Source: Chrysiogenes arsenatis DSM 11915
Lineage (GTDB): Bacteria > Chrysiogenota > Chrysiogenetes > Chrysiogenales > Chrysiogenaceae
Direction of reading: 5' to 3'
Assembly (NCBI RefSeq): GCF_000469585.1
Contig: NZ_AWNK01000004.1
Location: 40,311-104,310 of the forward strand
Length of the DNA: 64,000 nt
Shown here: positions 14,193-49,900 of the stretch, piece by piece
How positions within the stretch are numbered: position 1 is the stretch's first letter
Layout: each line of letters opens with the position of its first letter
The notes under the pieces: generated by a model
The model's database searches: none
The model's input: only the letters and a program-made list of their open reading frames with translations
What the model was told of the DNA's origin: nothing
Made by a program: the position numbers and the translations under genes

Positions 14193-14287
14193 ACCACCTC
14201 CTCAAACGTACCGACTAAAAACCAGAATACATAAGAAATAGATACTACTCTTATTCATGAAAAAAAATCAATGGAAAGCACGTCTAC

Positions 14288-18658: not shown

Positions 18659-18659
18659 T

Positions 18660-18697
18660 AAAAACGGGCGAGGATTTCGATTCCCCCGCCCGTTCTA
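18660..18697. terminator. Intrinsic terminator between convergent genes (best fit for gyrB)
   Basis: Stem AACGGGCG (18663-18670) / CGCCCGTT (18687-18694). On the minus strand the hairpin is followed by TTTTTATTA. Confidence 0.65.
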
Positions 18698-18708
18698 CTG
18701 TTGCCCCT

Positions 18709-21192
<2,484 letters not shown>

Positions 21193-21209
21193 TCAATGAA
21201 TTCACAGAG

Positions 21210-22895: not shown

Positions 22896-23857
22896 TCTTG
22901 CGAAACCAACGGATTTTTATTGGAGGCATCAGCATGAAACTTCGGCGATATATTTCCCACCACAACACGGTTGCGCCCCTGGCGTTTCGCGAGATAGAGG
23001 GCATCGTCTGCCACACCGATCAACATTTCCAAGGTGTTCTCTGTACTCCCTGAATATTCGGCAACACCTATACTAACCGTAATGCGCAGATGAATATCAT
23101 TATAGGTAATGATCGCACATTCAATCGCGGAACGAAGCCGTTCTGCCAATATAAAAGCATTCTCAGCCGATGTTTCTGGCAAAATACAACAAAACTCTTC
23201 GCCCCCATACCGCCCAACAATATCCACAATGCGCACCGCTTGCTGTAAGATGGTCGCCATTTCGCGCAAAACATAATCACCACATAAATGACCGTGGGTA
23301 TCGTTGACCACCTTGAAATGGTCAATATCGATCATAAACAGGCAGATTGATTTACCAAACCGGCGCGCTCTGGCAATTTCTGCGGCAAGACAAGAATCAA
23401 GATGACTTCGGTTGTAAAGCCTCGTCAGATGATCGAGTTTGCTCATTTCAATCAGTCGGTGTTCGTACATGACGTAGTCAGTTGCGTCCTGAATGGTAAT
23501 AAAGATCCGTGTGATGACCCCGCTCTCATCACGAATCGGCCCCGCCGTGCAATTCTGCTGCATAGCAGGAAGATATTCGGCAGAACCATGAGGATTTTTC
23601 ATTGGAATCAGGTAGTGGTGAAGTTTTTGCGAAAAAGTAGAATAATTGCCGAACTGAAATACACTTTGCACAAAACGCTTAAACGCGGCGGTTTTTAATT
23701 CGGGATAAAATTCATAGATCTCTTTCCCGACAATATCCTCTTCGCGAATGCAACTATGCATCGTCATCCAACGGTTCCACGTCGTAACCCGCATTTCGCG
23801 ATCTAAGACGACGATACCCATACTGATGGTGGCAAAAATCTGTTGGTGCTCAAGCAT
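22892..23857 (-). CDS. PAS-GGDEF diguanylate cyclase
   Basis: N-terminal PAS-like region (GIVVLDREMRVTTWNRWM). GGDEF domain with GGEEF and RxxD (RIVD) five residues upstream. 4-nt overlap with cheA and 8-nt overlap with the cheC-like gene. Confidence 0.9.
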   Translation of the reverse strand: MLEHQQIFATISMGIVVLDREMRVTTWNRWMTMHSCIREEDIVGKEIYEFYPELKTAAFKRFVQSVFQFGNYSTFSQKLHHYLIPMKNPHGSAEYLPAMQQNCTAGPIRDESGVITRIFITIQDATDYVMYEHRLIEMSKLDHLTRLYNRSHLDSCLAAEIARARRFGKSICLFMIDIDHFKVVNDTHGHLCGDYVLREMATILQQAVRIVDIVGRYGGEEFCCILPETSAENAFILAERLRSAIECAIITYNDIHLRITVSIGVAEYSGSTENTLEMLIGVADDALYLAKRQGRNRVVVGNISPKFHADASNKNPLVSQE

Positions 23858-24491
23858 ATTTTTCCAAATAGCTGGCGATAGCTTTTTTAAGCCAGTCTAA
23901 CGTAATATCGTTGCTGATTAAAAAGAGGTATCCGCTTGCATTAAAGTGTTCGAGGTGAAAAACCGTCTTAAAATAAATCGCATACGAATTCTGCACTTCA
24001 AAAGCAGAATTCAGCGATGTGTGAATTTGATCTTTCACAAAAAAACGGGGTGGCGAATACGTCACAACATCATCCAGCAACTCAGCAATTTTACTGATAC
24101 ATGCCCCGATGACGATATTACTTACTTCAATCAATCCCTCTTTTTCAAGCACATCGACATCAGGATAATCTGCGATAATGGTGTTGCTGCTGTCAAATAA
24201 CCGCAGAAGCTTCTTCCCTTCGCCATGGGGAAAGAGAAGCAGGCTTGAGCCGCTAAACTTACCACTGAAAAACTGCGTAATCATACTCATATCATTGACA
24301 TCGGGTATTTCTTTGCGAATGCAGCGGAATACCTCTGCAAATGGGATGACCTGAATGACAGGCACCGTCAGCGTGACATGCTGATCAATAACATCTGAAA
24401 TTCCGGCAGCCGCTTGCCCAAAAGAGATATTCATAATTTCTTGCAGAACATCCCGCTCTATTTCATTTAAGTAGCTTTTCTCTGCGTCCAT
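23850..24491 (-). CDS. CheC-family CheY-P phosphatase-like protein
   Basis: Two copies of the CheC signature [D/S]xxxExxN-x22-P. The first is DVLQEIMN followed by 22 residues then P. The second is a slightly degenerate EVSN followed by 22 residues then P. Confidence 0.75.
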   Translation of the reverse strand: MDAEKSYLNEIERDVLQEIMNISFGQAAAGISDVIDQHVTLTVPVIQVIPFAEVFRCIRKEIPDVNDMSMITQFFSGKFSGSSLLLFPHGEGKKLLRLFDSSNTIIADYPDVDVLEKEGLIEVSNIVIGACISKIAELLDDVVTYSPPRFFVKDQIHTSLNSAFEVQNSYAIYFKTVFHLEHFNASGYLFLISNDITLDWLKKAIASYLEKYA

Positions 24492-33620: not shown

Positions 33621-33662
33621 TTGGACAATAAAACAGGCAGCGCCATAATAAACACTGCCCGT
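33621..33662 (-). terminator. Weak candidate terminator at the end of the secretion-like operon
   Basis: Minus-strand stem ACGGGCAG / CUGCCUGU (8 bp including one G-U pair, 14-nt loop) followed by UUUAUUGU. Confidence 0.35.
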
Positions 33663-33696: not shown

Positions 33697-34551
33697 TTAT
33701 TCCCGCAGGGATATTTCTTTGTCCCACTCCCAGTAAAACGTGAGGTAAGGTTCGTTTGGGCGCCTCCACCCGAGTGAGATATGGCCAAGCATGGCATCGG
33801 GAAATCTTGAGAGGATCTGGATCACCGATGCGCGGCGAGAAATACTCAAGATCTCAAAGCATTGATCCTGCACGCACGGTAAGATATCCCTAATGGCTAC
33901 GTTTAAATCATACACTCGCAAATCCACCCCTTGGCTCTGTGGCGGAGTGTTGACGTACAGAATGTCCAGTTTTTTTTCGCCATCCACAGTTGCGACACCA
34001 ATCCGATCAAGTAGGCTACCGAAGATCGGTTCAGTAACAACCTCAGGAAGCAGTAAGGGAATCGTGGCTATGGTAGCACCGGGAACCATGTGGTAAGAAG
34101 TCACGCGCTCAAGTTTCCCACTTCGAGCCCGCCATTTGTAGCCACGACACCACAATGCCGATGGTTGCCAATAAAGTTGTTCTCCAACTTGCGTGGACAA
34201 ATGAACGGGAAATTCAAGATAGAGCTTGATGACCTCTGGCGTCGCTGACGACACGTTTTCCGGAGAGACTACCGCCGATTCAATTGCCAGATAACAAAAA
34301 TTTGCACGATCCCAATCGGCAAGAATTGATTCAGATACTATGTTCGGAACACCGCCAATCTCCTGAAAATGGGAAAACAATTCCATAGGGTCGAGATTCT
34401 GTTTATCAAACCCAAAAAGCAATCTACTGCCATCAAAGCCATTTGGTGTAATTTGCAGCGAACGTTCCCACCCTACCACTCTTGAACCCAACCAATGAGC
34501 GATTTGATAATAAACATCAAGAGTCAGAAGCTTATTGGAGTGGTTACTCAT
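33697..34551 (-). CDS. Hypothetical protein (284 aa), last gene of the operon
   Basis: Long ORF whose start overlaps the SecA-like gene stop by 8 nt. It has no signal peptide, TM segment or motif I recognise. Confidence 0.6.
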   Translation of the reverse strand: MSNHSNKLLTLDVYYQIAHWLGSRVVGWERSLQITPNGFDGSRLLFGFDKQNLDPMELFSHFQEIGGVPNIVSESILADWDRANFCYLAIESAVVSPENVSSATPEVIKLYLEFPVHLSTQVGEQLYWQPSALWCRGYKWRARSGKLERVTSYHMVPGATIATIPLLLPEVVTEPIFGSLLDRIGVATVDGEKKLDILYVNTPPQSQGVDLRVYDLNVAIRDILPCVQDQCFEILSISRRASVIQILSRFPDAMLGHISLGWRRPNEPYLTFYWEWDKEISLRE

Positions 34552-36502
34552 AACTGGTAAATGTCATCCTTTTTTGACTTTCGCGTGTTGCCGTGTTCAT
34601 AAATCGACGTAAGCGAAAGGCTTTTAACTCAGCTCGGTGCTGTGTAAGTCGAATCATTGTTGTCCATAATTTATTATGGGGCCAGTGTTCTGCCAAAGAA
34701 CACAGAACGCGCAAAACGCATTTTGGCAACACGGCTCGCATAATCCCATCCTCAAGCGAAACCAGTGGGTACGCTTCGCCCGGATTTCCCTGCCGCCCAG
34801 CGCGACCGAAAAGTTGCCAGTCAATGCGAGCCGACTCATGCGGCTCCATCATGATGACGCGTAACCCTCCTGCTGCCATTACTTCCCTCGAAAGCTTAAT
34901 GTCCGTTCCCCTTCCCGCCATGTTCGTCGCTATCGTGAGTTGCCCTTTCTCGCCTGCACGGGCAACAATATCGGCCTCTTCGGTGAGCTTTTTGGCGTTC
35001 AAGAGCTGATATTTTACCCTCTCCCGATCAAGCCGACCGGCAAGTTGTTCGCTATCTTCAATGGTACGTGTTCCTACCAGCACAGGAATCTCCCGCACAA
35101 GCAATTCCCGCAAAAGATTCAATAAACCAAGCTCTTTTTCCTGTTTCGTTACAAACAGCTGAAAAGGCTGCACGATCAGTTGCGATGGAAGTCGTGAAGG
35201 AATTCGGAGTGTGCGTATCCGATAGTTAAAAAACAGCTCATGAGCAATATTCTGCAGTGTGCCACTCGCACCCGTCAGGCGCACATAATGTTTAAAATAA
35301 TTCTGAAAACTCATCCGCGCTAACGTTTTATTCGGGTGAGTGAGTGGTACACCAGCGCGAGCCTCTACTGCTTGATGCAGGCCGTAGCTCCACGATCTAC
35401 CCGGCATAGGACGGCCAGTGCCTTCATCAACAATCACCACCTCGTCGTCAAGCACTACATAATGCTGATCCTGAAGAAAGTAATCACGCGCTAGCACAGC
35501 CTGCGTAAATAAATCATGGCGTCTATGTCGGCCTCGCCAAATAGGGGGAAGCTCTTGAGCCATCTTTTCCATTAACTGTTCACCATGTGTCGTCCAACGC
35601 ACATCTCGGTGCAGCGAACTACACTGATAATCTCGGGGCGACTGTAATCTATCGACCAGCGTGCGTGCGACAAGAATAGCTTCGTGTAGTACTGGATTAT
35701 GATCTGCTCCAGAAATAATCATCGGAGTAATGGCTTCATCAATCAAAATATTATCGGCTTCATCGACAATTGCGGTATGAATGCCGCGCATCAGTAATCG
35801 ATGTGCGGTTTGCCCTTGAAGCATACGCACACTCATGGTCAGAGGCGTCACGGAGCCGCCGAAAGTGATTTGATCGGTCAGATAGTCGGCTAAGAGCTGC
35901 TTGGCCGTTGAATACACAACATCGGCAAGATACTGCGTTGGCTTCTCTTCCTGAGTATGGGTTTGCAGCACCGTAGCAACGGAAACACTGCAAAATTCGT
36001 AGAGCGGTGCCAACTCAGTAGCGTCACGCTCGGCTAAGTAGTCATTGGCAGTAATGACGTGACAAGGTCGGTTGCTCCACCCGAAAAGAATAGCGAGTAA
36101 GCCAATCGTAAGAGTTTTCCCCTCCCCTGGTGCTAGCTGTACCAAATATCCATCAAACATGGCGAGAATGGCTGCCATTTGCACTTGATATGGTTCCATG
36201 CCCAGCAGTCGCACCGATGCAAGTTGAAGGAGAGCAAGTGTTTTATGCAATAACAACCGTTCTGCAGAGAGTTGACCGGCAAGCGCGTGCAAGCGCATTG
36301 CATTCAGCTGATGGATCAATGCTTCTGGAGTCAAATCAGCGAGAGCGCGATAGTGCCGACCAATACCATCTGCTTCTTGCAGATAGTCACTCACTAGTTT
36401 TTTTTCTCGCCAGCGATGCCGCACCAGATGCCATTTTACGATGCACCAATACGGCTCTTTCGGGAGTTTTTTTAACGATGGAAGTTGCAACGATGCGAGC
36501 AT
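34544..36502 (-). CDS. SecA-like ATPase (NBD1, PPXD, NBD2) lacking the C-terminal translocation domains
   Basis: Segments line up with canonical SecA: LGMEPYQVQMAAILAMFDGYLVQLAPGEGKTL (Walker A), ITANDYLAERDA, IVDEADNILIDEAITPMIISG, DEGTGRPMPGRSWSYGLHQAVEA and TLARMSFQNYF. Further matches are PVLVGTRTIEDSE, LNAK, TIATNMAGRGTDI and HESARIDWQLFGRAGRQGNPG. The protein ends ~80 aa after that last motif. Confidence 0.85.
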   Translation of the reverse strand: MLASLQLPSLKKLPKEPYWCIVKWHLVRHRWREKKLVSDYLQEADGIGRHYRALADLTPEALIHQLNAMRLHALAGQLSAERLLLHKTLALLQLASVRLLGMEPYQVQMAAILAMFDGYLVQLAPGEGKTLTIGLLAILFGWSNRPCHVITANDYLAERDATELAPLYEFCSVSVATVLQTHTQEEKPTQYLADVVYSTAKQLLADYLTDQITFGGSVTPLTMSVRMLQGQTAHRLLMRGIHTAIVDEADNILIDEAITPMIISGADHNPVLHEAILVARTLVDRLQSPRDYQCSSLHRDVRWTTHGEQLMEKMAQELPPIWRGRHRRHDLFTQAVLARDYFLQDQHYVVLDDEVVIVDEGTGRPMPGRSWSYGLHQAVEARAGVPLTHPNKTLARMSFQNYFKHYVRLTGASGTLQNIAHELFFNYRIRTLRIPSRLPSQLIVQPFQLFVTKQEKELGLLNLLRELLVREIPVLVGTRTIEDSEQLAGRLDRERVKYQLLNAKKLTEEADIVARAGEKGQLTIATNMAGRGTDIKLSREVMAAGGLRVIMMEPHESARIDWQLFGRAGRQGNPGEAYPLVSLEDGIMRAVLPKCVLRVLCSLAEHWPHNKLWTTMIRLTQHRAELKAFRLRRFMNTATRESQKRMTFTSYE

Positions 36503-36504
36503 GC

Positions 36505-38652
36505 TTACTGGATCTGATAGCGTGATTGTAATAGCTGCCGCACTGCCAGAGCTATTTGCTCCAGAAGCGGTCTGGGCGACAATGCAATACGCATGACACC
36601 AGGAGCACCATCATAGAAAGCCGTTGGTGATTCTGAAAAACGCGCAATCACCTCAAAAAACGGCTCATCAGTTCGTAATCTCCCTTGAGCATCAGCTTGA
36701 GCAAAGAGCGTACCACCTCCTTGAAGTGCGAGTGCCGAAGAAGGGAGCTCGTGCTTCTGATACGGAATAAACTGCAGATCATGACTCTCCAGTGGCGAAG
36801 TAAACTGCCCAGGCAGACGGATTTCGGCACGTAGCAAGTTCGATCCGAAAAGATCTCCTGCCTGCTCTTGGGTAACAACACCGACAAACTGCTGCTTGCC
36901 CGGAGTAATCATTACCCCTAAACGCTCTCCACGCATAAAATGCGAATTGACCCGCGCCGGCATCACATCACTTACCCAGATCCCATCAGTCGGTGCCACC
37001 GTCTTGAGTCGATCAAGTCGTTTGTCAAGTTCATCCAGACGCCCCACCAGAAACGACTCGCGGTCATAGAGCGCTTTTAAATCACCCTGCTTACCATCCG
37101 TTGCTTTGCGGATAAGCCAACGAGTTTCCACCAATTGTTGCCCTGTCAGTTCATACTCCAGTTCTAATTCTGGATTGATAAACTCCATCAACACACTGCC
37201 TTGCTGCACGGTATCGCCAGAACGAACGACCAGCGCTGTCAAGGTTCCACCGGCTTCCGCATACAACGGCATCCGCTGCTCAGACAAAAGCACCCCCGGC
37301 GCAACAAGGGCATACGGCAGAGGAAATGTTGCCAATACCAGCAGAATGAGCAGCGGGGTAACGGCAGAAACAACGATGGCACGACGGCGATTCTGCCGTA
37401 ATTCGCTGCTTTTACGAAGATATTGCACGAGTTTCAACGTGGGGCCAATGAGCCACATGTAGCACATTGCGAGTAACATTAAAACACCGAGAAACAGTGA
37501 AAGGTCGGCCATATAAAGCAAAATCGCCACCATAACGAACAGGCGGTAACCAAAACTTGCGGCACCATACCCATAATACCAGTAACGTTCGTTACGGTTT
37601 TCCGCCGGCTCCTGCGCATCTTTGGTGCCAAGAAGTACTACGTTCGCAATATAATGCCACTGACGCCCCGCTTTCTGATAGAGATTCGGCAAATCAATCA
37701 GATCGGAGAGGACATAATAGGCATCAAATTTCAGCAACGGATTTCCATTAAAAACAAAACTCGAAATAGAACCAATAATCATGATGTTAAAAGCAAGACC
37801 ATTGACAAACCCGGGTGCTGTCAACCCCCAAACAATCGCCGCCAACGCCGCAAAAAACAACTCAACATACAGACCAGAGACTCCGACAAATGCGCGGTGC
37901 CACTTACTGCGCATTGACCATGACGAGCTCACATCAATGTAAGGAAGCGGAGCCAGCGCGATAAACATCACCCCAAGCGTATAGACATCACCACCAGAAC
38001 GGCGACATGCTATTGCATGCCCCATTTCATGAAGAAATTTCAAGAGAAACATGGCGACATAAAGCCACAAAAGGTTATCGACGGCTAAAATCCCTTGTGC
38101 CTGACTCGTAAACGATCCGAAATGGTCAATCACCGACTTCGCACCAAACAAAACCACAAGCAACCAACCAACAAAAGACCATCGCGAAAAAAAACGTTGC
38201 AGCCATCCGATATTGTTCTTCAGAAATTCATTCGGATTCCAAAGTGGAATTCTAAAATAGAGAAATGCCAGCAGGTGAGAAAGCTTTTCCTTGCGCCGCT
38301 GCTCCGCGTAGCGCTCGAAAATTGATTCGCTCTTGCCCTGTGAGCGGAAGAACAGAAGGCTCATCTGATGCAGTTGGGATAATAACATAATGACGGCATC
38401 TTGACTCGGTGCATCTTCGGGATACTCTTCCGTAAATGCTATCCAAAGCTCTTCAACCGTTCTTTCCGGAGTAAGGCGCGCAAGGAACAGATACGCCGGT
38501 TCCTGAACGCGGTAGTACTTCTCAGAACAACTATCTTGCAGCACATACCAGACCTGATCGCGATAGATCTGTTTATGAATGCGGATCGTCGGCAGTAAAC
38601 CAAGCCGCAGTGTCGCAACCTGATACCAAGATTCGCTGAATGTCGCAGACAA
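36505..38652 (-). CDS. Polytopic M50 (site-2 protease)-family protein with PqqD-like N-domain and C-terminal MFP/HlyD-like periplasmic module
   Basis: HEMGH at residues 208-212 within a TM segment, and NPLLKFDAYY at residues 304-313 within another. There are about eight hydrophobic segments between residues 150 and 450. The N-terminal residues ~37-100 are PqqD-like. The C-terminal 260 aa have lipoyl-type half motifs (AEAGGTLTALVVRSGDTVQQGSVLMEF and VAPTDGIWV) and a beta-barrel-like tail. Confidence 0.8.
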   Translation of the reverse strand: MSATFSESWYQVATLRLGLLPTIRIHKQIYRDQVWYVLQDSCSEKYYRVQEPAYLFLARLTPERTVEELWIAFTEEYPEDAPSQDAVIMLLSQLHQMSLLFFRSQGKSESIFERYAEQRRKEKLSHLLAFLYFRIPLWNPNEFLKNNIGWLQRFFSRWSFVGWLLVVLFGAKSVIDHFGSFTSQAQGILAVDNLLWLYVAMFLLKFLHEMGHAIACRRSGGDVYTLGVMFIALAPLPYIDVSSSWSMRSKWHRAFVGVSGLYVELFFAALAAIVWGLTAPGFVNGLAFNIMIIGSISSFVFNGNPLLKFDAYYVLSDLIDLPNLYQKAGRQWHYIANVVLLGTKDAQEPAENRNERYWYYGYGAASFGYRLFVMVAILLYMADLSLFLGVLMLLAMCYMWLIGPTLKLVQYLRKSSELRQNRRRAIVVSAVTPLLILLVLATFPLPYALVAPGVLLSEQRMPLYAEAGGTLTALVVRSGDTVQQGSVLMEFINPELELEYELTGQQLVETRWLIRKATDGKQGDLKALYDRESFLVGRLDELDKRLDRLKTVAPTDGIWVSDVMPARVNSHFMRGERLGVMITPGKQQFVGVVTQEQAGDLFGSNLLRAEIRLPGQFTSPLESHDLQFIPYQKHELPSSALALQGGGTLFAQADAQGRLRTDEPFFEVIARFSESPTAFYDGAPGVMRIALSPRPLLEQIALAVRQLLQSRYQIQ

Positions 38653-38655
38653 TTC

Positions 38656-40536
38656 CTACCTCCAGAGCGCAAGACGGATACGATTCAGCGTCTTGTGTGT
38701 ATAGATCCAGAAGTACGACCGTGGTTGCACATGAATTTTTGCCACCCCAGTCATACCAGGGCGCCACCACGTTTCACCATCCTCTTCAAGTTGAGCAATC
38801 ACGGTAAACCGCGCCCCCTCCTGCGACTTCACCTCAGCCATTGGAATTACGCGACTGATTCGCAGGGGAATTTTCCGCCCTGGCTGGCTGACCAGCGCAA
38901 ATTCGCCAATACTCCCCTCGCGCACATGGTGAATGTCGTCATGCGCTACTTCAACTACCACATATACATCTTCGGTTTGTGCAATACGCAGCAGGGGTTG
39001 CCCTTTGGAAACAGGTGCTGAAATCAGCTCGCGCCGCTCCCCTTCGACCACTACCCCAGTAAAGGGAGCGTGCATATGTGCTTGCGAAAGCTGATAATTC
39101 ACCCGCTCCATACGGGCTTTCACCTGCTCAATCCGTGCCAAAGCAATCGCCAAGTCCACACTGGTAAACTCTGCCCGAGCCCGATCAGCTTCGGTTACGT
39201 TTCGCTGTAACTCCGCTTGGAGTTCGGCAAGTTGCATCAGCAAATCTTGCACATCAAGCGTCAGCAACGGATCACCTTCCACCACCTCGTCACCACTGGT
39301 GACATAGGCATCGATGATCACCCCCTCAAAAGGGGCCGTAATGAGCCGAGTATTGTCCGTAACAAACTGCCCAGTCCCTTCAACAGTATGCATGGTGGAG
39401 AATGTCAGCGAGCCAAACAACAGTAAAGATCCAGCCAGTACCAACGACTTAACCAGCAGATTTTCTGCCCCCGCAAGACGGCCAATTGTGCGCAGAGCAA
39501 CCGTCCGCAACCGATCGCGCCATTCGGCATCTTGCAAATACAATTGTTCCAGCCGCGGCATCACGGTTCGTGCCAGAAAGTGCACCGCCTCGCAAGGAAG
39601 TTCCGGCAAATCATCACGGTAGTTGACGAGTGTCAATGCGAACACGGTATGGCCGTGAGAGTTCACAAGCGGAAAAGTCATAATAGATCGTGCCGCAAGG
39701 TGGGTTTGTAGTTGTTGATGAGCAAGGGTAATTACCTTTCCATCCGAAGCACGGTGACTTGAATAATGAATGGCGGCAACCTGATCCACCGACTCCTCTA
39801 AAGCCGCTTCAAACAGTCTAACGGTATCGGTTTTTTGCTCAAAGCGCTCATAGTGGCTGATCCCCTTTACCCGTGTATACGCCCCCTCTTTCCAGCCCAG
39901 CACGACCTGATCAAAGGCGCTCTGGTAATTAACGATGCCATTGGCTAACGCATACACAGCCGCTTGAAAGTTTTCGGATTGATATATTTCGCTCAGCAAG
40001 TCGAGCAAGCTTGCGAGCATGTTTTCGTGCGCCGTTTTCCGCGCATCAACTGCTTTTGACTCTGTACCTAACAACGCTGACGTGTTCAAGACGGACTCAT
40101 CCTGCACAAAGTCGAGCATTAACTGGGCACGCACAAGAATGTCGTTCAAACGTGTTGCAGCATCACAATCAATCGCTAAAATCAAAAAATATGGGGTAGG
40201 ACACAACGCACGGAGCGCGACGAAGCCGATTGACCCATCGATATGGGGATGGGGTGGACGGTGGGCAAATCCACTGGCTTCGGCCCGCTGCAGAAAAAGG
40301 AAAAATTCCTGCGTGTCTAACAAAGGCTTTGACGGGCTTTTCTGTTCTAAATCGCTGGTAGCAACCAAAAGCAGTTGATGTTCCTGTACCAAAATGAGTT
40401 CCGCACTCGGCACACGGCATACGTTCTTGACGAGCACCAGATAATCTATCCACGATGCTTGACCTGCTTGAGACTGAGTGACCCGTACGTGGTATAATTC
40501 CTGTAATCGTTGGCGAAATGCTTCTTTAGAGGCCAT
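38656..40536 (-). CDS. HlyD/MFP-family periplasmic adaptor with ~370-aa cytoplasmic N-terminal domain and one TM
   Basis: Single TM LLVKSLVLAGSLLLFGSLTF near residue 375. Then ITAPFEGVIIDAYVTSGDEVVEGDPLLTLD, a coiled-coil hairpin, HAPFTGVVV and a beta-barrel region ending GMTGVAKI. Confidence 0.8.
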   Translation of the reverse strand: MASKEAFRQRLQELYHVRVTQSQAGQASWIDYLVLVKNVCRVPSAELILVQEHQLLLVATSDLEQKSPSKPLLDTQEFFLFLQRAEASGFAHRPPHPHIDGSIGFVALRALCPTPYFLILAIDCDAATRLNDILVRAQLMLDFVQDESVLNTSALLGTESKAVDARKTAHENMLASLLDLLSEIYQSENFQAAVYALANGIVNYQSAFDQVVLGWKEGAYTRVKGISHYERFEQKTDTVRLFEAALEESVDQVAAIHYSSHRASDGKVITLAHQQLQTHLAARSIMTFPLVNSHGHTVFALTLVNYRDDLPELPCEAVHFLARTVMPRLEQLYLQDAEWRDRLRTVALRTIGRLAGAENLLVKSLVLAGSLLLFGSLTFSTMHTVEGTGQFVTDNTRLITAPFEGVIIDAYVTSGDEVVEGDPLLTLDVQDLLMQLAELQAELQRNVTEADRARAEFTSVDLAIALARIEQVKARMERVNYQLSQAHMHAPFTGVVVEGERRELISAPVSKGQPLLRIAQTEDVYVVVEVAHDDIHHVREGSIGEFALVSQPGRKIPLRISRVIPMAEVKSQEGARFTVIAQLEEDGETWWRPGMTGVAKIHVQPRSYFWIYTHKTLNRIRLALWR

Positions 40537-40548: not shown

Positions 40549-41433
40549 TCACAGCTGCACTCGCGCTTTTAATCCTGGCCGAAACCGATTATCCACGTTG
40601 CGATATTCAACCTTCACTTCGACTAATCCACTTGCCGGATCAGCTACTGGTGAGAGAAAAGAAATCGCCCCTTGTGCGCGCGTGGATTCCACTGCAAAAT
40701 CAACTTTTTGCCCTATCGTAAGCTTCGCTGCGATAGCACTCGGAATACTGATGCGGATGTAAATATACGAAGTATCAACCAGTTCGATGATCGGCTCACC
40801 CGCCTGAGCCCATTCCCCTTTTTTGAGGCGAATTTGGGTGATAAATCCTTTACTGGGCGCGAGTAGAGTCCGTTGGGCAAGGACTTGTCGGCCAATTTTA
40901 TAATCGTAGTCTTGTTTTTTTTCTTCTAACTCAAGCAGTGCAACTTCGCTCTCTGTTGTGACTCTATTGATGATCATTTGATTGAGCTCATCAAGACTGA
41001 TTGATCTACTTTCATGGTACAACTCAAGAGCGGATTTTACTTGCTCCACTTGCAGCAGTAACCGAGCGCGAGCCCCGTCCAATGCACTCTTGTCCCGCAT
41101 CAGCGTTTCAAGGCGCGACAGTTCAAGTTGCTCAATATGTTGCTCCAGCACCAAGAGCGGTGTTCCCTGATCGACGTAGGCTCCTTCTGCGATCTTGACT
41201 TCACTGACCACACCGCTAACCGCCATTGCGAGCAAGTAGCGCTCACGAGGGTACACCACACCTACCATCGCATCACTTATTGCAACCGTCTCATGTGGAC
41301 TCACCTCTGGACTAAATGAACGGAAATCGCCACGCGAACGAGTGCTTGGAGCCTCGCTCGCTATAGCGAATACATTCAAGGACAAAAACAGCAGGAAAAA
41401 AATACAGTTGGTCAATCGCATAGTGCCCTTCAA
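40549..41433 (-). CDS. Secreted MFP/HlyD-family periplasmic adaptor
   Basis: Signal peptide ending AIA|SEA. Lipoyl halves (VSGVVSEVKIAEGAYVDQGTPLLVLE and LAPSKGFITQI), a coiled-coil hairpin, and a beta-barrel with LVEVKVEY. Confidence 0.85.
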   Translation of the reverse strand: MKGTMRLTNCIFFLLFLSLNVFAIASEAPSTRSRGDFRSFSPEVSPHETVAISDAMVGVVYPRERYLLAMAVSGVVSEVKIAEGAYVDQGTPLLVLEQHIEQLELSRLETLMRDKSALDGARARLLLQVEQVKSALELYHESRSISLDELNQMIINRVTTESEVALLELEEKKQDYDYKIGRQVLAQRTLLAPSKGFITQIRLKKGEWAQAGEPIIELVDTSYIYIRISIPSAIAAKLTIGQKVDFAVESTRAQGAISFLSPVADPASGLVEVKVEYRNVDNRFRPGLKARVQL

Positions 41434-41437: not shown

Positions 41438-43027
41438 CTACAGTGCTTCTACGTCAAACTGAATGCCGAGTTCCTGCAACAGGCTACCATCCGAAAGCTG
41501 AAGACTGATTTTTGCCAGTTCATATTGAATCTCGGCATCCACCATACGGATTATACCCACGTTGAGATTATCTTCGCGCTCAATCATATCAATGTAGCGC
41601 GCTACACCGCGGTCAAACCGTTCCCGCTCAATTTCAAGCAGTTCCTTGAGGACAGTGGTATTCTGCCGATGACGATCCAACTCTTGATACGCTTGATCTA
41701 CCTGTGCAAGCCGCAACTGAAGTTGATTTGAAAGGTCTACCTTTACCGCTTCAGCCTGATATTGATTTTGGGTAATTCGTGAAAGCGCTATGGATTCTTT
41801 CGAACGCGCACTTTGATTACCACCTAAAGGGATGGAAAACTCAACACCAGCATACCAGTTGGGATAACGCTCCGAAAATGCTTCTTCAAAAGTTCTGCCG
41901 TAGCGCTCATCATACCGAAGGCTACTTTGGCCATAGCCCGCAACAAAATCGAGTTTTGGACGCAACTCATCGCGGGCTATCGCCAGAGAATGTTCTTCCA
42001 GCGCAATACGTTCTATTGCAATTCCGTAATTCGGCCAAACACTGAGAACCTGCTCAAAGTAAGTCTGAAAACTTTCCGGCTGTTGCCACGCGGTAGTGTC
42101 AGGCTCTGAAGTCGTCTGAAAAACAACGTGCTGATATTCATTGGCTGAGAGGTTGAGAACCCCCTTAATCGCACTTTTCACTTGTTCATACCCGCGCTCT
42201 ACGACAAATGATTCTGCCTGACGAAGTAGAAGGGTAGAACGGGCTTCGGTCATAGCAGTTTGCGGTAAGCGCCCAGCTTGCACGCGCCGCTCAATATCGG
42301 TGAGGATATTATTCGCATTTTTCAATGAATCTGCATTCAAAGCTTTCATCTGTTCGGCACGGTACAGCCGCCAGTAGAGGCTGAGCGCATCGTATGACTT
42401 ACTCAGAATCTGTTGCTGAGTTTCCTGTTTGCGGATTTCAATCTGTTTTTCTGATTGTGCGATCCGATTCTCAATTTGAGCCGCCCCAAATCCGCGCAAA
42501 ATTGGTTGACGGATACGGAAATTCAGCGAACCGACATTGTCGTTAATCCCAGTAGGATCATTCACCGAGCTCGTATTATTATAGCGTTTATGCCCTTCAT
42601 ATTCGACAGAGACCTCAGCCCCAGAAACGACTAACGTGCGCACGCCAAACTGAAAACGACCATTGCGGTCTATCGTCGTGTCATTAGGGGCTAACGGATT
42701 ATTTTCGGTTTTTCGCTCATCAGCACGGAGTATTGAAAAAAATTCCATCTCGTATGCGGCGCGATCATGCTGTAGTTGCGCCTCAGCAATTTTTTTCTGC
42801 TCTGCACTTACGAGCACCTCAGGATTGCGTAGGAGCACAAGGTGCACGAAAGACTCTTTATTTAGAGCCACAGCACCTTGTTGTATTTGCGTCAGCACTT
42901 GTTCGTGGCGATTCATGTCACCATGAGAAGGTTGACTCTCGGCCCACGCGGGAATGGCCAGACACGCTGCCGAAACCGCTAAACCTGCAAAAACTTTTTG
43001 GGGGCAAGAAAGTATATTCCGTATCAT
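41438..43027 (-). CDS. TolC-family outer-membrane channel protein
   Basis: Signal peptide ending PAWA|ESQ. Two-fold repeat organisation with long helical and short beta segments, with size and pattern typical of outer-membrane efflux proteins. I chose ATG 43027 after AAGAGG. 4-nt gap to the next gene. Confidence 0.85.
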   Translation of the reverse strand: MIRNILSCPQKVFAGLAVSAACLAIPAWAESQPSHGDMNRHEQVLTQIQQGAVALNKESFVHLVLLRNPEVLVSAEQKKIAEAQLQHDRAAYEMEFFSILRADERKTENNPLAPNDTTIDRNGRFQFGVRTLVVSGAEVSVEYEGHKRYNNTSSVNDPTGINDNVGSLNFRIRQPILRGFGAAQIENRIAQSEKQIEIRKQETQQQILSKSYDALSLYWRLYRAEQMKALNADSLKNANNILTDIERRVQAGRLPQTAMTEARSTLLLRQAESFVVERGYEQVKSAIKGVLNLSANEYQHVVFQTTSEPDTTAWQQPESFQTYFEQVLSVWPNYGIAIERIALEEHSLAIARDELRPKLDFVAGYGQSSLRYDERYGRTFEEAFSERYPNWYAGVEFSIPLGGNQSARSKESIALSRITQNQYQAEAVKVDLSNQLQLRLAQVDQAYQELDRHRQNTTVLKELLEIERERFDRGVARYIDMIEREDNLNVGIIRMVDAEIQYELAKISLQLSDGSLLQELGIQFDVEAL

Positions 43028-43063
43028 CGTCAACCTCTTTGTATCGGCATAGATGGCCATGGC

Positions 43064-43128: not shown

Positions 43129-43875
43129 TTATGACTCAGCGATTACAGGCTCTGTTTCACCTGGCTTCAGGCTCGTCTGCCCATCTTTTAGCATCGCCAA
43201 GCGTTCAAGTTGGCTGAGTGAGGTTAAATGAGCAAAGATAGGCGCAAAGTAGCGCTTTTCGCGTATTTCAAGAAAGCGCTTATCGGAAAGATTATTCAAA
43301 CGCTCCTCATTGATCACATAACAACCAGTTACGTTGCGAATCTGCCCACCGTAGCGCACACGCATACTGAGCGGAGTAAAGAGATTATTTTCAGCCATGA
43401 ACGTACAGAATGCCTTCGTGAAGATCTCCATTTGTTGCATTTCGCCAAGGTATTTTTTTACATTGTCGATGATCACGGTTGGCTCACCTTTTTCAAACAA
43501 CGCTTGGCCATCTTTTGTCCCAACACAGTCCGCATCTTCATCAATGCAAACTGTAAATTGATCAGCTTGATCACTTTTAGCGAGGGCAAAAGGGTAACGG
43601 CGGATAATGGCTGGCACATATGAAGCCTTCCAACTCCCATCTTCAGCGATAAATAGATTTTCTCCGGCATCAAGGCCAAACATCACAACAGGCTTAAATT
43701 CATCCTGCTCTTTGTCTTCAAGGAAAACAATCGGATACACCGATGCCGCCCGAGCAAATTCATGCACCATGAGTGACGCAATATGAAACTTACTGGCAAA
43801 GGCAAAGCTGCTAATAGGTGTCACTTTTGTCTTCGCATGTTTGTCCTTGTTAAGCGGAACCAATTTTTTAAACAT
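43129..43875 (-). CDS. SapC-family protein
   Basis: The N-terminal pattern LVPLNKDKHAKTKV...F......H...L...EF..AA..YPIVFLED and ~250-aa length match SapC-family proteins as I know them. The gene starts 26 nt after the giant-gene stop. Confidence 0.75.
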   Translation of the reverse strand: MFKKLVPLNKDKHAKTKVTPISSFAFASKFHIASLMVHEFARAASVYPIVFLEDKEQDEFKPVVMFGLDAGENLFIAEDGSWKASYVPAIIRRYPFALAKSDQADQFTVCIDEDADCVGTKDGQALFEKGEPTVIIDNVKKYLGEMQQMEIFTKAFCTFMAENNLFTPLSMRVRYGGQIRNVTGCYVINEERLNNLSDKRFLEIREKRYFAPIFAHLTSLSQLERLAMLKDGQTSLKPGETEPVIAES

Positions 43876-43901: not shown

Positions 43902-46900
43902 TTAAAACTCAAATTCTTCCTCTGTGTAGAAGTCGAAAATGAAACTATCTTGAATACTTGAGCCAAAGCTCGAAAACTGGAAGTCTCCATAGAAGTTAAC
44001 CACCTTGCTGGAAGTATACGGCATTTGCAGGTTGAAACCTGGCTCTAAGCCTACTGGCGCTTGCTGCATAAATCCAAAGTCGAAGTTGATGCCACCAAAC
44101 ATTCCGTCAGAGATGCCAAGATCGCTCAAGTTCATAAAGGAACTCATGGTGGCTTTCTGTAAACGTGACAAGCTTGCATGATCAAGGAATGTTGTCGCAT
44201 TGTGCAAACGCAGAGCATCCATATTTTCTATCGATAATTCTTGGATTGTTTTACTTGCACTAGCCGAAGCGCCTCCCCCTTGAGATCCACTGAAGCGCAC
44301 TGACTCAAAAGCACTCAATTTGAATTCCGCTCTCACTGGACCATGAACAACGGCGTGATTACCCACAGAAATCACGTACACTCGCTGATCAATACCACGG
44401 ATACCAAATATATAGCTATCACCAGTAGCATCATCAACAACACTATACAGTTGCCCAGGACCGACAATGCCATGAATCTGCGCTGCATCTATCTTCAGTA
44501 AGTCAGCGCGGATAGCTTCAAGTTGAGGTATCAGGCTTGCTACTGGCTGATCAATAAAAAACGGTATCGTCTTGATAAACACCTGATTGGCAACAATATT
44601 GGCTGCTTGTGTCCCGAGCGAACTCTGGATACGATATTCCGAACTTTCAAGCCACACATCACCACCCGTCGCAACGTGAGCAATCAACAAAATACTATCG
44701 GTCGAGGTAAAGTAAATATCGCCTCGCTCTGATAATGTCTGTGCACTTGCTTTCATCTCTATGACCGGAGCCGTGTAACGAACTTCCCCCTGCCCCGTCA
44801 GCGACAGAGTGGCCTCTTGCACAATACTTTTTCCAGATGAAAGGACAACGGTACTATCGACGCCTGAGATATTCATAGCAAGAATCAGTGAACCATGTAC
44901 GGCATGGAGTTCGATAGTGCCATGACTACTCGTTCCATTCAGCATTGAATCCGTAATTTCTTCAACAAGAGCTTCATTGGTCATCCGCAGCACCGTTAGC
45001 TCACCGAACTGGTCATTATCACCAATGCGCAAATCTTCTTGGGCGGCAAGGAAGATACCACCATGACCAATATCCGCACTCAGTGAATCGACTTCAACCA
45101 CAAAAGGACGCCCTGATTCACCAAGTTGACTACCAGTAACCCGCAGATACTTTGCTAGGATATTCACGGTACTTGAAGGAGCACTGGTTATGACGCCACC
45201 AACCAGACTGACCGCAGTTGGAGTTGTTACATGAGAGATGGACATACTGTGAGTTGCTTCGATGCGAATATTGTTCTGAGTTTGCAATAGAGCTTTAGCT
45301 GTCATGGAGACTGATTGGGCACTAATGTCGAGCGTCGCATCTCCTGTAATATGAACCAGACTGTCGATAAACTCCACATTGCCGTTCCGCGCTAACAACG
45401 ACACATTACCACTGCTGGCAATGTCGCTCTGCACGATAATGGATCCATTTTCAACTTCTATTTGTAAGTGCTCGCCAGAGAAATTCAACGCACCATCAAG
45501 TATAAAGTTTCGCTGCTCACCGGAAACGCCTGCCTGCACCATTATGACAGTTACGGTGTCGGTTGCCAATTCAAGCTCAGACAAACGCAGATCACCACTA
45601 GTGGTAATGGTATTTAACCCCGCTATGGTGAATACCCCCTGCAGGGTAGTAGTCCCGCCACTGTGAGCACTTAGATCGCCACCAACCGTGAGGTTTCCTT
45701 CAATTGTCAAAGTTTCATCGGTTTTGATAGTCGTGTCACCGGTGATAGTGATTGCATCGCTGAGTATTACTGCTCCGGTTCCGGTGATAGCAAGGTCGCC
45801 GCCAATCTCTAGTGTGCCTTCGACGGTAGTTGCTCCGCCGACTGTCAGGGTAACATTGGCGCTGGTGAAAGTTCCTTCTATCAGCAGGGCATCGGTTGAT
45901 GTTAGTTCAGTACTTCCTTCAACGATAAAGATTCCGTCTAGGATGCTCTCGCCTGCACTGCTTGTGGTAAGGGCGCCACCAACAGTGAAGTTTCCTTCAA
46001 GTGTCAGGTCAGCATCGGTCTCGATAGTCGCGTCACCAATAATAGTGATTGTATCGTTGAGCATCACCGCTCCGGTTCCGGTGATAGCAAGGTCGCCGCC
46101 AATATCTAGTGTGCCTTCGACGGTAGTTGCTCCGCCGACTGTCAGGGTAATGTTGGCGCTGGTGAAAGTTCCTTCTATCAGCAGGGCACCGGTTGATGTT
46201 AGTTCAGTACTTCCTTCAACGATAAAGGTTCCATCTAGGATGCTCTTGCCAACACTGCTTGTGATGAGGGCGCCACCAACAGTGAAGTTTCCTTCAATCG
46301 TCAGGTCGGCATCGGTCTCGATAGTCGCGTCACCGCTAATGGTGATTGCATCGCTGAGCATCACCGCTCCAGTTCCGGTGATAGCAAGGTCGCCGCCAAT
46401 ATCGAGCGTACCTTCGACTGTAGTTGCTCCACCGACTGTCAGGGTGACGTTGGCACCGCTGAAGGTTCCGGTAATCGATAAGTCTGCTTTCGCATCGATA
46501 GTCGTGTCACCGCTAATGGTGATTGCATCGCTGAGTATTACTGCTCCGGTTCCAATGATAGCAAGGCTGCCTGCAACATCCAGCTCACCTTCGATAGTGG
46601 TTGTTCCGCCGATTGTCAGGGTGACATTGGCGCTGGTGAAAGTTCCTTCTATCAGCAGGGCACCGGTTGATGTTAGTTCAGTACTTCCGTCAACGATAAA
46701 GGTTCCATCTAGGATGCTCTTGCCAACACTGCTTGTGATGAGGGCGCCACCAACAGTGAAGTTTCCTTCAAGTGTCAGGTCGGCATCAGTCTCGATAGTC
46801 GCGTCACCGCTAATGGTGATTGCATCGCTGAGCATCACCGCTCCGGTTCCGGTGATAGCAAGGTCGCCGCCAATATCTAGTGTGCCTTCGACGGTAGTTG

Positions 46901-49900
46901 CTCCGCCGACTGTCAGGGTAACGTTGGCGCTGGTGAAAGTTCCTTCTATCAGCAGGGCACCGGTTGATGTTAGTTCAGTACTTCCGTCAACGATAAAGGT
47001 TCCGTCTAGGATGCTCTTGCCAACACTGCTTGTGATGAGGGCGCCACCAACAGTGAAGGTTCCGGTAATCGATAAGTCTGCTTTCGCATCAATGTTGATG
47101 TCACCGTCAATGGCTATTGCATTACTGAGTATCACCGCTCCGGTTCCAGTGATATCAAAGTTGCCAGCAACATCCAGCTCACCTTCAATAGTGGTTGCTC
47201 CACCAACTGTCAGGGTGACGTTGGCACCGCTGAAGGTTCCAGTAATCGATAAGTCTGCTTTCGCATCGATGTTGGTGTCACCGTCAATGGCGATTGCATT
47301 ACTGAGTATCACCGCTCCGGTTCCAGTGATGCCAAGGTTGCCAGCAACATCCAGCTCACCTTCGATAGTGGTTGTTCCGCCGACTGTCAGGGTGACCTTG
47401 GCACCGCTGAAGGTTCCGGTAATCGATAAGTCTACTTTCGCATCGATGTTGGTGTCTCCGTCAATGGCGATTGCATTACTGAGTATCACTGCTCCGGTTC
47501 CAGTGATATCAAAGTTGCCAGCAACATCCAGCTCACCTTCAATGGTAGTTGTTCCTCCGACAGTCATGGTGACGTTGGCACCGTTGAAATCTCCGTCAAT
47601 CGTCAGGGCTGCATCAGTATCGATAGTCGTGTCACCGGTGATAGTGATCGAATCGCTGAGCATTACCGCTCCAGTTCCGGTGATGCCAAGGTTGCCGCTA
47701 ATATCCAATGTGCCAGCGACTGCGGTTGTTCCACCGACTGCCAAGGTGACGTTGGCGCCAGTAAAGGTTCCGATAATCGCCAAGCCTGCTTTCGCATCGA
47801 TGGTCGTGTCACCGGTGATAGTGATCATATCGCTGAGCGTTACCGCTCCGGTTCCGGTGATGCCAAGGTTGCCGCTAATATCCAGTGTACCAGCGACTGC
47901 GGTTGTTCCACCGACTGTCAGGGTGACATTGGCACCGCTGAAGGTTCCGATAATCGCCAAGCCTGCTTTCGCATCGATAGTCGTGTCACCGCTAATGGTG
48001 ATTGCATCGCTGAGCGTTACCGCTCCGGTTCCGGTGATAGCAAGGTTGCCTGCAACATCCAGCTCACCTTCAATAGTGGTTGCTCCACCGACTGTCAGGG
48101 TGACGGCGGCGCCGGTAAAGTCTCCTTCTATCAGCAGGGCACCGGTTGATGTTAGTTCAGTACTTCCTTCAACGATAAAGGTTCCGTCTAGGATGCTCTT
48201 GCCAACACTGCTTGTGATGAGGGCGCCACCAACAGTGAAGTTTCCTTCAAGTGTCAGGTCGGCATCGGTCTCGATAGTCGCGTCACCGCTAATGGTGATT
48301 GTATCGCTGAGCATCGCCGCTCCGGTTCCGGTGATAGCAAGGTCGCCGCCAATATCGAGCGTACCTTCGACGGTAGTTGTTCCTCCGACTGTCATGGTGA
48401 TGTTGACACCAGTGAAATCTCCATCTATCGTCAAGTCTGCTTTCGCATCGATGTTGGTGTTGCCGTCAATGGTGATTGCATTGCTAAGTGCAACGTTTCC
48501 GGTTCCGGTGATGCCAAGGTCGCCGGTACTCACCAGCCTACCTTCGACGTTAGTTGCGCCTCCGACAGTCATGGTGACACCACCGCCGGTGTATCTCCCT
48601 TTAAGTGTTAAATCATTTGTGGCAGAAAGGTTGCTACTTCCTGTTGTGCTAAAAGTACCGCGCAAGATACTTGCACCATCGCTGTTCGCGACGAAGTCGC
48701 CAGCAACGGTTAACTCGCCTATGATTGTCAGGTCTGCTTTCGAATCGATGGTCGTGTCACTGCGCAGCTTGAAATCACCAATAAGAACCATATTGCCCTG
48801 ACTGTTGATTGTACTGGTGCCGCTTACCGTGAGTGACAGCGCACTTGCCTGATTGCTGGTGAGCGCTCCAAGGGTATCAATGTGCAACGTTCCGGCAACT
48901 GCATTTCTACCAAAGAGGTACGTGTCGCCATCTATAAAGAGCGTCGCATCACCGTTGAGCGTAGTGACGTTCAGGCTCGCAATGCGCACCTCGCTCTGAG
49001 TATTTGCGCCAAGGGAAATATCGCCATTGGTGGCGCGCATGGTGGTTTTGCCACCAAGTCGCAATACATCATCGGTATCATTGGCCAGTGCTATTGATTG
49101 GGCGGTGAATGAGTTATCGCCCGTCACGATAAGCTGTGTACTGGCGCCAGCGGTAATACTCTCTGGCGTAGTCACATTAAGGCGTCCCGCCGTATTGCTG
49201 CCTACAAACGTCACGGCATTATCAAGTTCCAATACCACTGCGCCAGCACTGTTGACCGTCAAGGTTCCGGCAGAGAAAAAGTCACCAACAGCATTGCCAA
49301 GACGAATTTCCCCGCCAGAGAATGCGGCATGACCTGTAATCGTAAGTTGTGCTTGCGTCAGGTTGGAAAGCACATTGACCGCTTGCGCACGAAGATCTCC
49401 ACCGACAGTGATATTCGATAGGGTTAAATTGTTGGCAGCCTTCAAATGGACATTTTTGGCTTGATGCACCGTCACGGCACCACCAAAGTTATGACTATTG
49501 TCAAATACAATATCCGATGCCGCATCAGCCGTGAGCTTTGTGATTCCCGTGACCGACAACTTGCCCGTCGCGCCATCATTAAGAGAACCCGATACCACCA
49601 GTTCTAGTGTTTTAGCAGTGCTTTCCCCCGCTAACACCATATCGCCATCGTGTGTTATGCGCACATTGCCATTGCTCACAAAGGTCAGAGTGCCAGTAGT
49701 GAAGGAATCGGTATCGATAGTAACGGCACTGCCTGAGAAACGGGAATTCTCTTCAACCGCAATCTGCGCCCCCTCTAGAGTACTCAGCTCATGAACCGCT
49801 GTCGCAACAAGATTGCCGGTGACGGTCAGATTTGCCAGTGTCAAGGTATTCACATCGCTGAGTGTTACATTCCGAGCGCCGAGCACGGTCACTGCGCCAC

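Follow-up and report, generated by a model that had tools for sequence, protein, structure and literature searches.

A conserved short SecA paralogue paired with an M50-adaptor membrane protein is the probable motor of an export apparatus for giant proteins

The stretch of DNA analyzed here (hereafter the window) covers 64,000 nucleotides of Chrysiogenes arsenatis DSM 11915 (contig NZ_AWNK01000004.1, positions 40,311 to 104,310) and encodes on its minus strand a SecA-like protein of 652 amino acids (positions 34544 to 36502 of the window), which we call the short SecA. This protein is a conserved, naturally truncated SecA paralogue that keeps the motor and the preprotein clamp of SecA. It probably powers an apparatus that exports giant proteins and that is conserved, widespread, and apparently undescribed. 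Its gene directly follows the gene of an M50-adaptor membrane protein of ~715 residues in 35 loci of several bacterial lineages, with one exception found. The search of open-access papers and bioRxiv preprints, subscription journals lying outside its scope, revealed neither an account of a separately encoded short SecA accompanied by M50, adaptor, and TolC partners nor an export route for giant proteins of the LEPR-XLL type.

The open reading frame (ORF) of the short SecA is intact and starts with ATG. Its product is identical to a C. arsenatis entry named "hypothetical protein" at NCBI and "preprotein translocase subunit SecA" in UniRef. Pfam assigned the families SecA_DEAD (residues 31 to 423, E = 4.5e−71), SecA_PP_bind (PF01043, residues 278 to 380, E = 6.5e−23), and P-loop_SecA (E = 2.3e−44) to it. 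The ORF translation and a 48-sequence family alignment placed the Walker A motif APGEGKTL of the first nucleotide-binding domain (NBD1) at residues 124 to 131 (36110 to 36133) and the DEAD motif (Walker B) at residues 247 to 250 (35753 to 35764). The preprotein cross-linking domain (PPXD), which forms the clamp, spans approximately residues 266 to 385 (35348 to 35707), according to PF01043 and a MAFFT alignment. It is followed by NBD2 (approximately residues 441 to 590; 34733 to 35182, by Pfam and alignments) with motif V (TNMAGRGTDI) and motif VI. All the SecA motifs named in a preliminary description made from the sequence alone were found at the residues given there, and they are invariant in the 48 homologues: G126 to T130 of Walker A, D247, E248, and D250 of DEAD, T526 to I535 of motif V, including the arginine finger R531, and E553 to G572 of motif VI.

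The preliminary description had also proposed that the protein is truncated after NBD2 and has lost the finger, the wing, and the C-terminal tail, and this is borne out by three types of analysis. The wing/scaffold model SecA_SW (PF07516) had no match in the short SecA by Pfam. Alignment to solved structures paired residues 51 to 600 with residues 33 to 558 of Bacillus subtilis SecA (33 to 34% identity), and MAFFT alignment with Escherichia coli SecA (translated from NC_000913) paired residues 20 to 652 with E. coli residues (Ec) 1 to 662. Since the match stops at Ec ~662, the short SecA ends within the long helix of the helical scaffold domain (HSD). The AlphaFold2 model, built with 48 homologues (pLDDT 88.8, pTM 0.86), ends in a single helix of 40 residues (residues 610 to 650; 34553 to 34675), which corresponds to the first part of the scaffold helix in MAFFT as well. 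The wing domain, the two-helix finger (IRA1), and the C-terminal linker with its zinc tail thus have no counterpart in Pfam, the alignments, or the model. The ~80 residues at the C terminus had been read as the start of the scaffold. They do belong to the scaffold region, and they hold more than its start: among the ~77 residues after motif VI, ~45 belong to the long HSD helix and show the AQxxAxxxxFxxRK pattern of canonical SecA. Foldseek returned only SecA structures as top matches of the model (E about 1e−48). The highest TM-scores (0.76 to 0.80) were to the SecY-bound chains 6itc_A, 5eul_A, 3dl8_A, and 3din_A, against 0.63 to 0.69 for free SecA chains.

The curated SecA and SecA2 models of NCBIfam cover the short SecA only to profile position ~491 to 598 of ~790, with scores of about half the cut-off or less. 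The canonical models (TIGR00963 / NF009538 class) gave 450, 433.5, and 443.5 bits, below their cut-offs of 814, 800, and 862, respectively. The SecA2 models TIGR03714, TIGR04221, TIGR04397, and NF012136 gave 376.6, 344.4, 395, and 314.8 bits, below cut-offs of 930, 725, 1085, and 1100, respectively.

At the other end of the protein, an N-terminal extension of ~100 residues had been described, and this proved to be an overestimate: canonical SecA also has ~100 residues before Walker A (Ec 102 to 109), and the true extension is ~19 residues long. This family-specific tail (residues 1 to 19; 36446 to 36502) is free of gaps across the family alignment, and most members carry in it an aromatic-x-[E/P/S]-P-[R/K] motif (for example, FFEPRLSL, YIEPRPL, and WFPPRTE). 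The pattern E[PA][RK] occurred in 39 of 108 N termini of short SecA proteins, against 4.8% of background windows. The tail of the C. arsenatis protein has only a weak version of the motif (LPSLKKLPKEP). Judging from sequence likeness, the tail resembles the LEPRxLL leader of the putative substrates described below, and it might anchor the motor at the RRE domain of the partner protein or compete with the leader.

The short form is a family of its own. The 120 best database homologues have 471 to 707 residues (median, 655) and are found in several classes of Proteobacteria, in Desulfobacterota, and in Chrysiogenes, with Marinomonas, Vreelandella, Thiomicrospira, Azohydromonas, Leptothrix, and Desulfosarcina among the sources. 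Short SecA proteins are also encoded on rhizobial and roseobacterial plasmids and chromids. In a neighbor-joining tree of the motor region of 89 SecA-type ORFs, all the M50-linked proteins fell in one clade of 25, of which every member is a short form. The end points in this clade are shared as well, at about Ec 658 to 669 in 22 of the 25 members and at Ec 756 to 760 in the other 3. Two objections had been foreseen, that the two-helix finger and HSD might turn out to be present or that the gene might be a fragment of secA. The finger is absent from alignment and model, and the conserved clade counters the fragment reading. The metagenome scan with the family alignment used the TNMAGRGT motif as its pattern and returned mostly canonical SecA, because this motif is universal. 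The resulting 58 canonical loci served as a control set. A scan of a genome collection with the short SecA as the query returned one unrelated locus with a SecA of 986 residues.

Two other short SecA-type ORFs lie outside the M50-linked clade and were rejected as members of the family: one of 674 residues (locus L037, 1188 to 3212), which has no informative context, and one of 686 residues (locus L035, 1738 to 3798). The latter keeps the first 57 positions of SecA_SW and adjoins M23 and argJ genes, so that it is probably a broken canonical secA. As a truncated canonical control, it does match SecA_SW. The names given to members of the short family in RefSeq and JGI vary widely: "DEAD/DEAH box helicase," "translocase," "prepilin peptidase," "helicase-related protein," "preprotein translocase subunit SecA," and "hypothetical."

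The partner encoded just upstream (36505 to 38652, minus strand) is an inner-membrane protein of 715 residues in which Pfam, NCBIfam, the alignment, and the structural model distinguish three parts. The first (approximately residues 1 to 105; 38338 to 38652) is a PqqD-like leader-peptide-recognition (RRE) domain. The second is a polytopic membrane domain of the M50 (site-2-protease-like) type, with the zinc-binding motif HEMGH (H208, E209, and H212; 38017 to 38031). The HExxH motif is invariant across the partner family, as is a motif with the third ligand (N302-x-N304-P305...D310). Leader peptidases of the M50/site-2-protease type are characterized by an N-terminal RRE domain and by a polytopic membrane domain in which an Asp ligand follows the HExxH motif, and the partner has both. 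The third part (residues 444 to 712; 36517 to 37323) is a periplasmic domain resembling membrane fusion proteins (MFPs), the periplasmic adaptors, with a lipoyl domain, an alpha-hairpin, and a beta-barrel. The model of the partner (pLDDT 84.9) and its fold matches give this C-terminal domain an MFP fold. Of the curated models, daptide_HExxH (NF041824) covers residues 23 to 401 (E = 6.8e−45), with 153.8 bits against an equivalog cut-off of 300, and YydH/LiaK (NF058609) matches with an E value of 3.2e−5. The length of the family is very constant. A phmmer search of 1.84 billion cluster representatives returned 3,835 relatives at E values of 1e−30 or lower (representatives of clusters at 50% identity), a count that may include subfamilies without a SecA partner; the system is therefore not a curiosity of one genome. 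The best 150 relatives listed all had E values below 1e−98, had mostly ~715 residues, and aligned end to end. RefSeq and JGI name these proteins "PqqD family peptide modification chaperone," "site-2 protease family protein," "biotin/lipoyl-binding protein," or "putative peptide zinc metalloprotease."

The preliminary description had noted the polytopic gene 2 nt upstream of the short secA. The gap is indeed 2 nt (36503 to 36504), the two genes overlap by 1 to 4 nt in several other loci, and the adjacency in 35 loci supports a coupling between the two products. An M50-like gene lies directly upstream in all 20 loci of the short clade with enough upstream DNA, counting the window and six loci on long contigs, against 0 of the 58 canonical SecA loci of the metagenome scan. 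Starting from the M50 side, a short SecA was found directly downstream in 3 of 3 loci. Among the best M50 hits on plasmids and chromids, 12 of 13 have a SecA-like match just downstream (Mesorhizobium, Rhizobium, Sinorhizobium, Ensifer, several Rhodobacterales, and Methylosinus). The six loci on long contigs belong to Thiomicrospira, Desulfosarcina ovata, Azohydromonas lata, Marinomonas, and two metagenome-assembled genomes. All six have the M50-like gene immediately ahead of the short secA; they also encode two adaptors, in most cases an OEP protein, frequently SapC or Lcl_C, and a giant protein of up to 13,721 residues.

This wider gene cluster, with its adaptors, TolC-like channel, SapC, and giant gene, had been missed in the preliminary description, which holds as far as it goes. 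On the minus strand of the window, the order is giant ORF, SapC, OEP/TolC-like protein, adaptor of 294 residues, adaptor of 626 residues, M50-adaptor protein, short SecA, and an ORF of 284 residues, with a terminator-like hairpin behind it. Gaps of 2 to 68 nt separate the genes from SapC onward. The TolC-like outer membrane factor of the OEP family (540 residues; 41438 to 43060) matches PF02321 with an E value of 6.3e−27. The short adaptor (294 residues; 40549 to 41433) consists of an N-terminal signal or anchor and a periplasmic domain of the RND_mfp/HlyD type. The long adaptor (626 residues; 38656 to 40536) has a cytoplasmic domain of ~355 residues, one transmembrane helix (~360 to 380), and a periplasmic domain of the HlyD/RND type. 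These two ORFs are the ones matched by HlyD_D23, HlyD_3, and RND_mfp in Pfam and NCBIfam. The OEP/TolC-like protein and two adaptors recur in other loci. From the giant gene to the terminator we found no HlyB-type ABC exporter, and the only ABC genes of the window are an ABC-2 pair at 364 to 2105, ~30 kb beyond the end of the cluster. Likewise, none of the related loci has an ABC gene inside the cluster; one has such a gene ~5 kb beyond it (L007). We also found no secY2 or asp gene, and no small precursor gene or modification enzyme of ribosomally synthesized and posttranslationally modified peptides (RiPPs), in the cluster.

The cytoplasmic part of the long adaptor (residues 1 to 355) is unusually large and may be where the motor docks or is regulated. 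It had no match in Pfam, even in a relaxed scan, or among PDB sequences, and its homologue in locus L099 gave only faint GAF matches. Could the missing C terminus of SecA be encoded separately, by this domain or by the 284-residue ORF? We rejected this possibility, as hhalign comparison with a profile of the canonical SecA C terminus gave probabilities of 0.1 to 0.3%.

The presumed substrate is the product of the giant ORF at the edge of the window (43902 to 64000, minus strand), of at least 6,697 residues. Its listed start, at 63995, has no upstream stop: the frame reads ..tg ttc ATG and stays open to base 64000. Hence, the gene has more than 6,697 codons, and the N terminus of its product lies outside the window. 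The visible part is acidic, contains no cysteine (0%), has no signal peptide or transmembrane helix, and carries DUF5649 repeats. Pfam did not detect an RTX family in it, and a search for homologues of its first 800 residues returned no match, the query itself included. Giant genes encoding 1,100 to 13,721 residues flank 22 loci. All nine related giant proteins with a visible N terminus (from four metagenome loci and five alphaproteobacterial plasmids) begin with a basic stretch followed by [LM]EPRxLLSAD. The LEPR-XLL model NF012209 scored above its cut-off in the four proteins scored, and RefSeq names two other plasmid proteins "LEPR-XLL domain-containing protein." SecA moves chains from the N to the C terminus. 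An N-terminal leader fits this direction of movement, as it fits leader binding by an RRE domain and a protease able to remove leaders.

At their C termini, the seven closest giant proteins (window 43902 to 44100; loci L001 to L003 and L006 to L008) end in acidic and aromatic residues, such as FDFYTEEEFEF, FDYWVEDISF, and DSEDWLDSML. Four of the seven share an AF[LV]LG...QP.SSG block ~30 residues upstream of the end. The alphaproteobacterial giant proteins have no evident end of this type. From the sequences, the shared C terminus could be a signal or a retention element.

We propose that the cluster encodes a TolC-coupled exporter of a type-I-like design, with the RRE-M50-adaptor protein and the short SecA in place of the ABC transporter. 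The RRE domain would capture the leader, basic and with LEPRxLLSAD, at the N terminus of the unfolded, cysteine-free giant protein. The short SecA would dock on the cytoplasmic face of the M50/adaptor complex, grip the chain in the clamp formed by PPXD and NBD2, and feed it N terminus first into the inner-membrane complex at the expense of ATP. The chain would then pass through the tunnel formed by the adaptors and TolC, and the M50 active site would remove or release the leader. We infer this docking of the motor, the direction and route of transport, the cleavage of the leader, and the independence from SecYEG. The regulation of the short SecA presumably comes from its partners. Taken in full, the proposal amounts to an unrecognized class of Gram-negative secretion: a TolC-coupled tripartite exporter with a finger-less SecA docked on an RRE-M50-adaptor fusion that recognizes a LEPR-XLL leader and threads proteins of 2,000 to 14,000 residues, N terminus first, over both membranes without SecYEG or an ABC transporter. 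We consider the chances of this complete version to be about even.

Several observations weigh against the proposal. No M50 protease is known to act as a channel, and the inner-membrane pore component of the exporter is putative. The short SecA keeps the PPXD, the NBD surfaces, and the scaffold helix, which contact SecY in canonical SecA, and the use of SecYEG by the short SecA is thus conceivable. In the Thalassospira marina plasmid pCSC3H3 (L092; NZ_CP024200.1, 193606 to 212571), a LEPR-XLL giant gene, DUF3467, the long adaptor, the M50-adaptor protein, the short adaptor, and TolC are found with no SecA-like gene between them, suggesting that some variants may do without the motor; this locus may use a different energizer or have its motor encoded elsewhere. 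In some loci (e.g., L010, L013, and L019), the flanking DNA available contains no giant gene. Finally, with the N terminus of the window's giant protein lying beyond the window edge, a LEPR-XLL leader in this protein is a prediction.

Given these retained surfaces, the short SecA might be an accessory motor similar to SecA2 that sends the giant protein to the housekeeping SecYEG, with the M50-adaptor protein, the other adaptors, and TolC acting afterwards, in leader cleavage and at the outer membrane, as a two-step secretion. The PPXD, the NBDs, and the scaffold helix contribute to SecY contacts in SecA-SecYEG complexes, and the predicted conformation is nearest to that of SecY-bound SecA, although an AlphaFold conformation alone is weak evidence. 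Dedicated SecA paralogues for large adhesins exist in the SecA2 systems, and the SecA2 models match the short SecA partially. Nevertheless, the short SecA lacks the two-helix finger with which SecA inserts into SecY, a hydrophobic signal peptide of the Sec type is missing from the giant proteins, the cluster has no secY2 or asp gene, and the conserved coupling, at 0 to 4 nt, is to the M50-adaptor gene and to no Sec component. We therefore regard this two-step route as unlikely. That the gene is a pseudogene or an assembly fragment of the housekeeping secA, as its shortness and its scores below all the curated SecA cut-offs might suggest, is effectively refuted by the intact frame and the invariant catalytic residues, by at least 120 homologues from many lineages with a length of ~655 residues that are monophyletic with a common end point, and by the occurrence of the same short protein on rhizobial and roseobacterial plasmids and chromids.

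Two further explanations turn on the partner. Its best curated matches are leader peptidases (daptide_HExxH, 6.8e−45; YydH/LiaK, 3.2e−5), it has an RRE fold, and it is called "putative peptide zinc metalloprotease" (JGI) or, for some members, "PqqD family peptide modification chaperone" (NCBI), all of which would suit a RiPP-type module where the RRE-M50 protein matures a small ribosomal peptide, the SecA-like ATPase and the adaptors export it, and the giant gene is a mere neighbor. This is very improbable in view of the compact cluster, in which there is no small precursor or modification gene and the gaps from the SapC gene onward are 2 to 68 nt, of the score of the partner at about half of the equivalog cut-off, and of the recurrence of the giant gene in 22 loci with a conserved leader-like motif at its N terminus. 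A quality-control or unjamming protease, in which the SecA-like protein would act as an unfoldase feeding stalled or surplus giant protein into the M50 site for degradation, with no drive of export, seems improbable too. By analogy, an ATP-driven polypeptide motor coupled to an intact membrane metalloprotease recalls the ATPase-protease pairs of the FtsH type. Yet degradation has no need of a protease fused to an adaptor of the TolC-docking type, nor of the two additional adaptors and the outer membrane factor encoded beside it, and the genes nearby include no alternative exporter for the giant protein. The SecYEG, RiPP, and protease explanations are thus less well supported than a role of the short SecA as the motor of an exporter.

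The short SecA combines canonical and divergent traits. With canonical SecA it shares NBD1 and NBD2 with all the ATPase motifs, a PPXD that interrupts NBD1, and the initial ~45 residues of the long scaffold helix. Unlike canonical SecA, it ends at ~Ec 662, has a 19-residue N-terminal tail with its own motif and an insert of 17 residues before DEAD, and is never encoded beside sec genes, being almost always placed after the M50-adaptor gene. The protein resembles the E. coli fragment SecA-N68 (PDB 5k9t) with the scaffold helix added. Its content of motor and PPXD is nearly the same as that of SecA-N68 and of the isolated DEAD motor (3bxz), and both structures were matched. SecA-N68 is an engineered laboratory fragment whose ATPase is deregulated because IRA1 is missing, whereas the short SecA is a natural conserved family that keeps the scaffold helix. 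The accessory SecA2 proteins of mycobacteria and the SecA2/SecY2 systems of Gram-positive bacteria offer another parallel, as SecA paralogues dedicated to a few special surface proteins, many of them very large. In SecA2 proteins, the scaffold domain with its finger is retained, and the partner is SecY or SecY2. In contrast, the short SecA matches the SecA2 models only to position ~550 of ~765, far below the cut-offs, and has no secY2 or asp gene nearby.

The gene cluster resembles type I secretion minus the ABC component and with an apparent N-terminal signal. As in type I secretion and tripartite pumps (HlyBD-TolC, LapBCE, and MacAB-TolC), there is a TolC-like factor with adaptors of the HlyD/MacA type, and the visible part of the window's giant protein is, like type I substrates, giant, acidic, cysteine-free, repetitive, and devoid of a Sec signal peptide. 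Unlike these systems, the cluster has no ABC, RND, or MFS transporter and in its place has the SecA-type motor as the putative energizer and the M50-adaptor protein as the putative membrane subunit. It also encodes three different adaptor-domain proteins, and the conserved signal apparent in related loci is N-terminal (LEPR-XLL), unlike the C-terminal signal of type I secretion. SapC accompanies operons of type I secretion, and sapC and tolC lie beside giant genes in Chlorochromatium, where a type I system was assumed and the energizer was not identified (bioRxiv 10.64898/2026.03.19.712371). With the RiPP leader peptidases of the M50 type (daptide, NF041824; YydH/LiaK, NF058609), the partner shares the architecture of RRE and HExxH membrane protease over residues 23 to 401. 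It differs in its score below the cut-off, its additional C-terminal adaptor domain, the lack of RiPP genes nearby, and its pairing with a SecA-like ATPase.

The closest published idea is that of West-Roberts et al., who described modules of SecA_DEAD and PPXD without scaffold or wing, located after transmembrane segments and fused in giant proteins of Omnitrophota and Actinobacteria, and proposed self-export (bioRxiv 10.1101/2023.11.21.568195). Those modules are fused in the giant protein, with no M50, adaptor, or TolC partners described, whereas the short SecA is a stand-alone protein. In these giant proteins, the SecA-like domains may represent the engine of the proposed exporter in a fused state.

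The accessory genes of the clusters vary by lineage. A SapC-family protein is present in the window (248 residues; 43129 to 43875, by Pfam) and in several other loci, and elsewhere it is replaced or joined by Lcl_C or DUF3467. A DUF3467 protein of ~95 residues is encoded directly after the giant gene in 5 of 5 alphaproteobacterial loci, all on plasmids (L089 to L093), and Lcl_C-domain proteins occur in loci of the betaproteobacterial type (L003, 4851 to 6224; L007, 4881 to 6257; L101, 5958 to 7298). Searches of PDB sequences with SapC and DUF3467 gave only chance or compositional matches. The clusters of Thiomicrospira (L001, 11985 to 12902) and Oceanospirillum (L100, 6639 to 7625) include a protein similar to APH/choline kinases. 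In the window, the last ORF (284 residues; 33697 to 34551, minus strand) overlaps the short secA by 8 nt. It had no Pfam family, even in a relaxed scan, gave chance-level matches to PDB sequences, and is absent from the other loci, suggesting a lineage-specific rider; its identification with the kinase-like accessory was rejected for lack of BLASTP similarity. Just 3' of this ORF lies the terminator-like hairpin (33633 to 33662, minus strand), a 12-bp stem followed by a T run, which is likely to be the end of the operon.

Antisense to the giant gene, there is a plus-strand ORF of 1,037 residues (45688 to 48801) and there are several of 150 to 280 residues. The plus-strand ORFs within 43902 to 64000 are most likely shadow ORFs of a repetitive and compositionally biased giant gene. 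The region from 5397 to 24491 is ordinary chromosome, with cyclic di-GMP and chemotaxis genes (GGDEF, EAL, HDOD, CheA-like, CheC/CheX, and methyl-accepting chemotaxis proteins), gyrB, and pnp. Giant type I adhesins such as LapA are controlled by cyclic di-GMP; in the window, more than 9 kb separate the genes of this type from the end of the cluster.

If the short SecA is the motor of this apparatus, the finding would explain the exit route of the proteins of the LEPR-XLL type. These form a large, widespread group among the longest proteins of bacteria and reach ~13,700 residues in these loci. To our knowledge, the energizers of TolC-coupled tripartite machines so far are ABC, RND, and MFS transporters, and a SecA-type motor with an M50 membrane protein would be the fourth. 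The annotation of the short SecA and of its partner families would be corrected. A natural SecA without finger, wing, and SecB/zinc tail would moreover provide a test of the finger power-stroke model against clamp or ratchet models of SecA, and of how the ATPase is restrained without IRA1.

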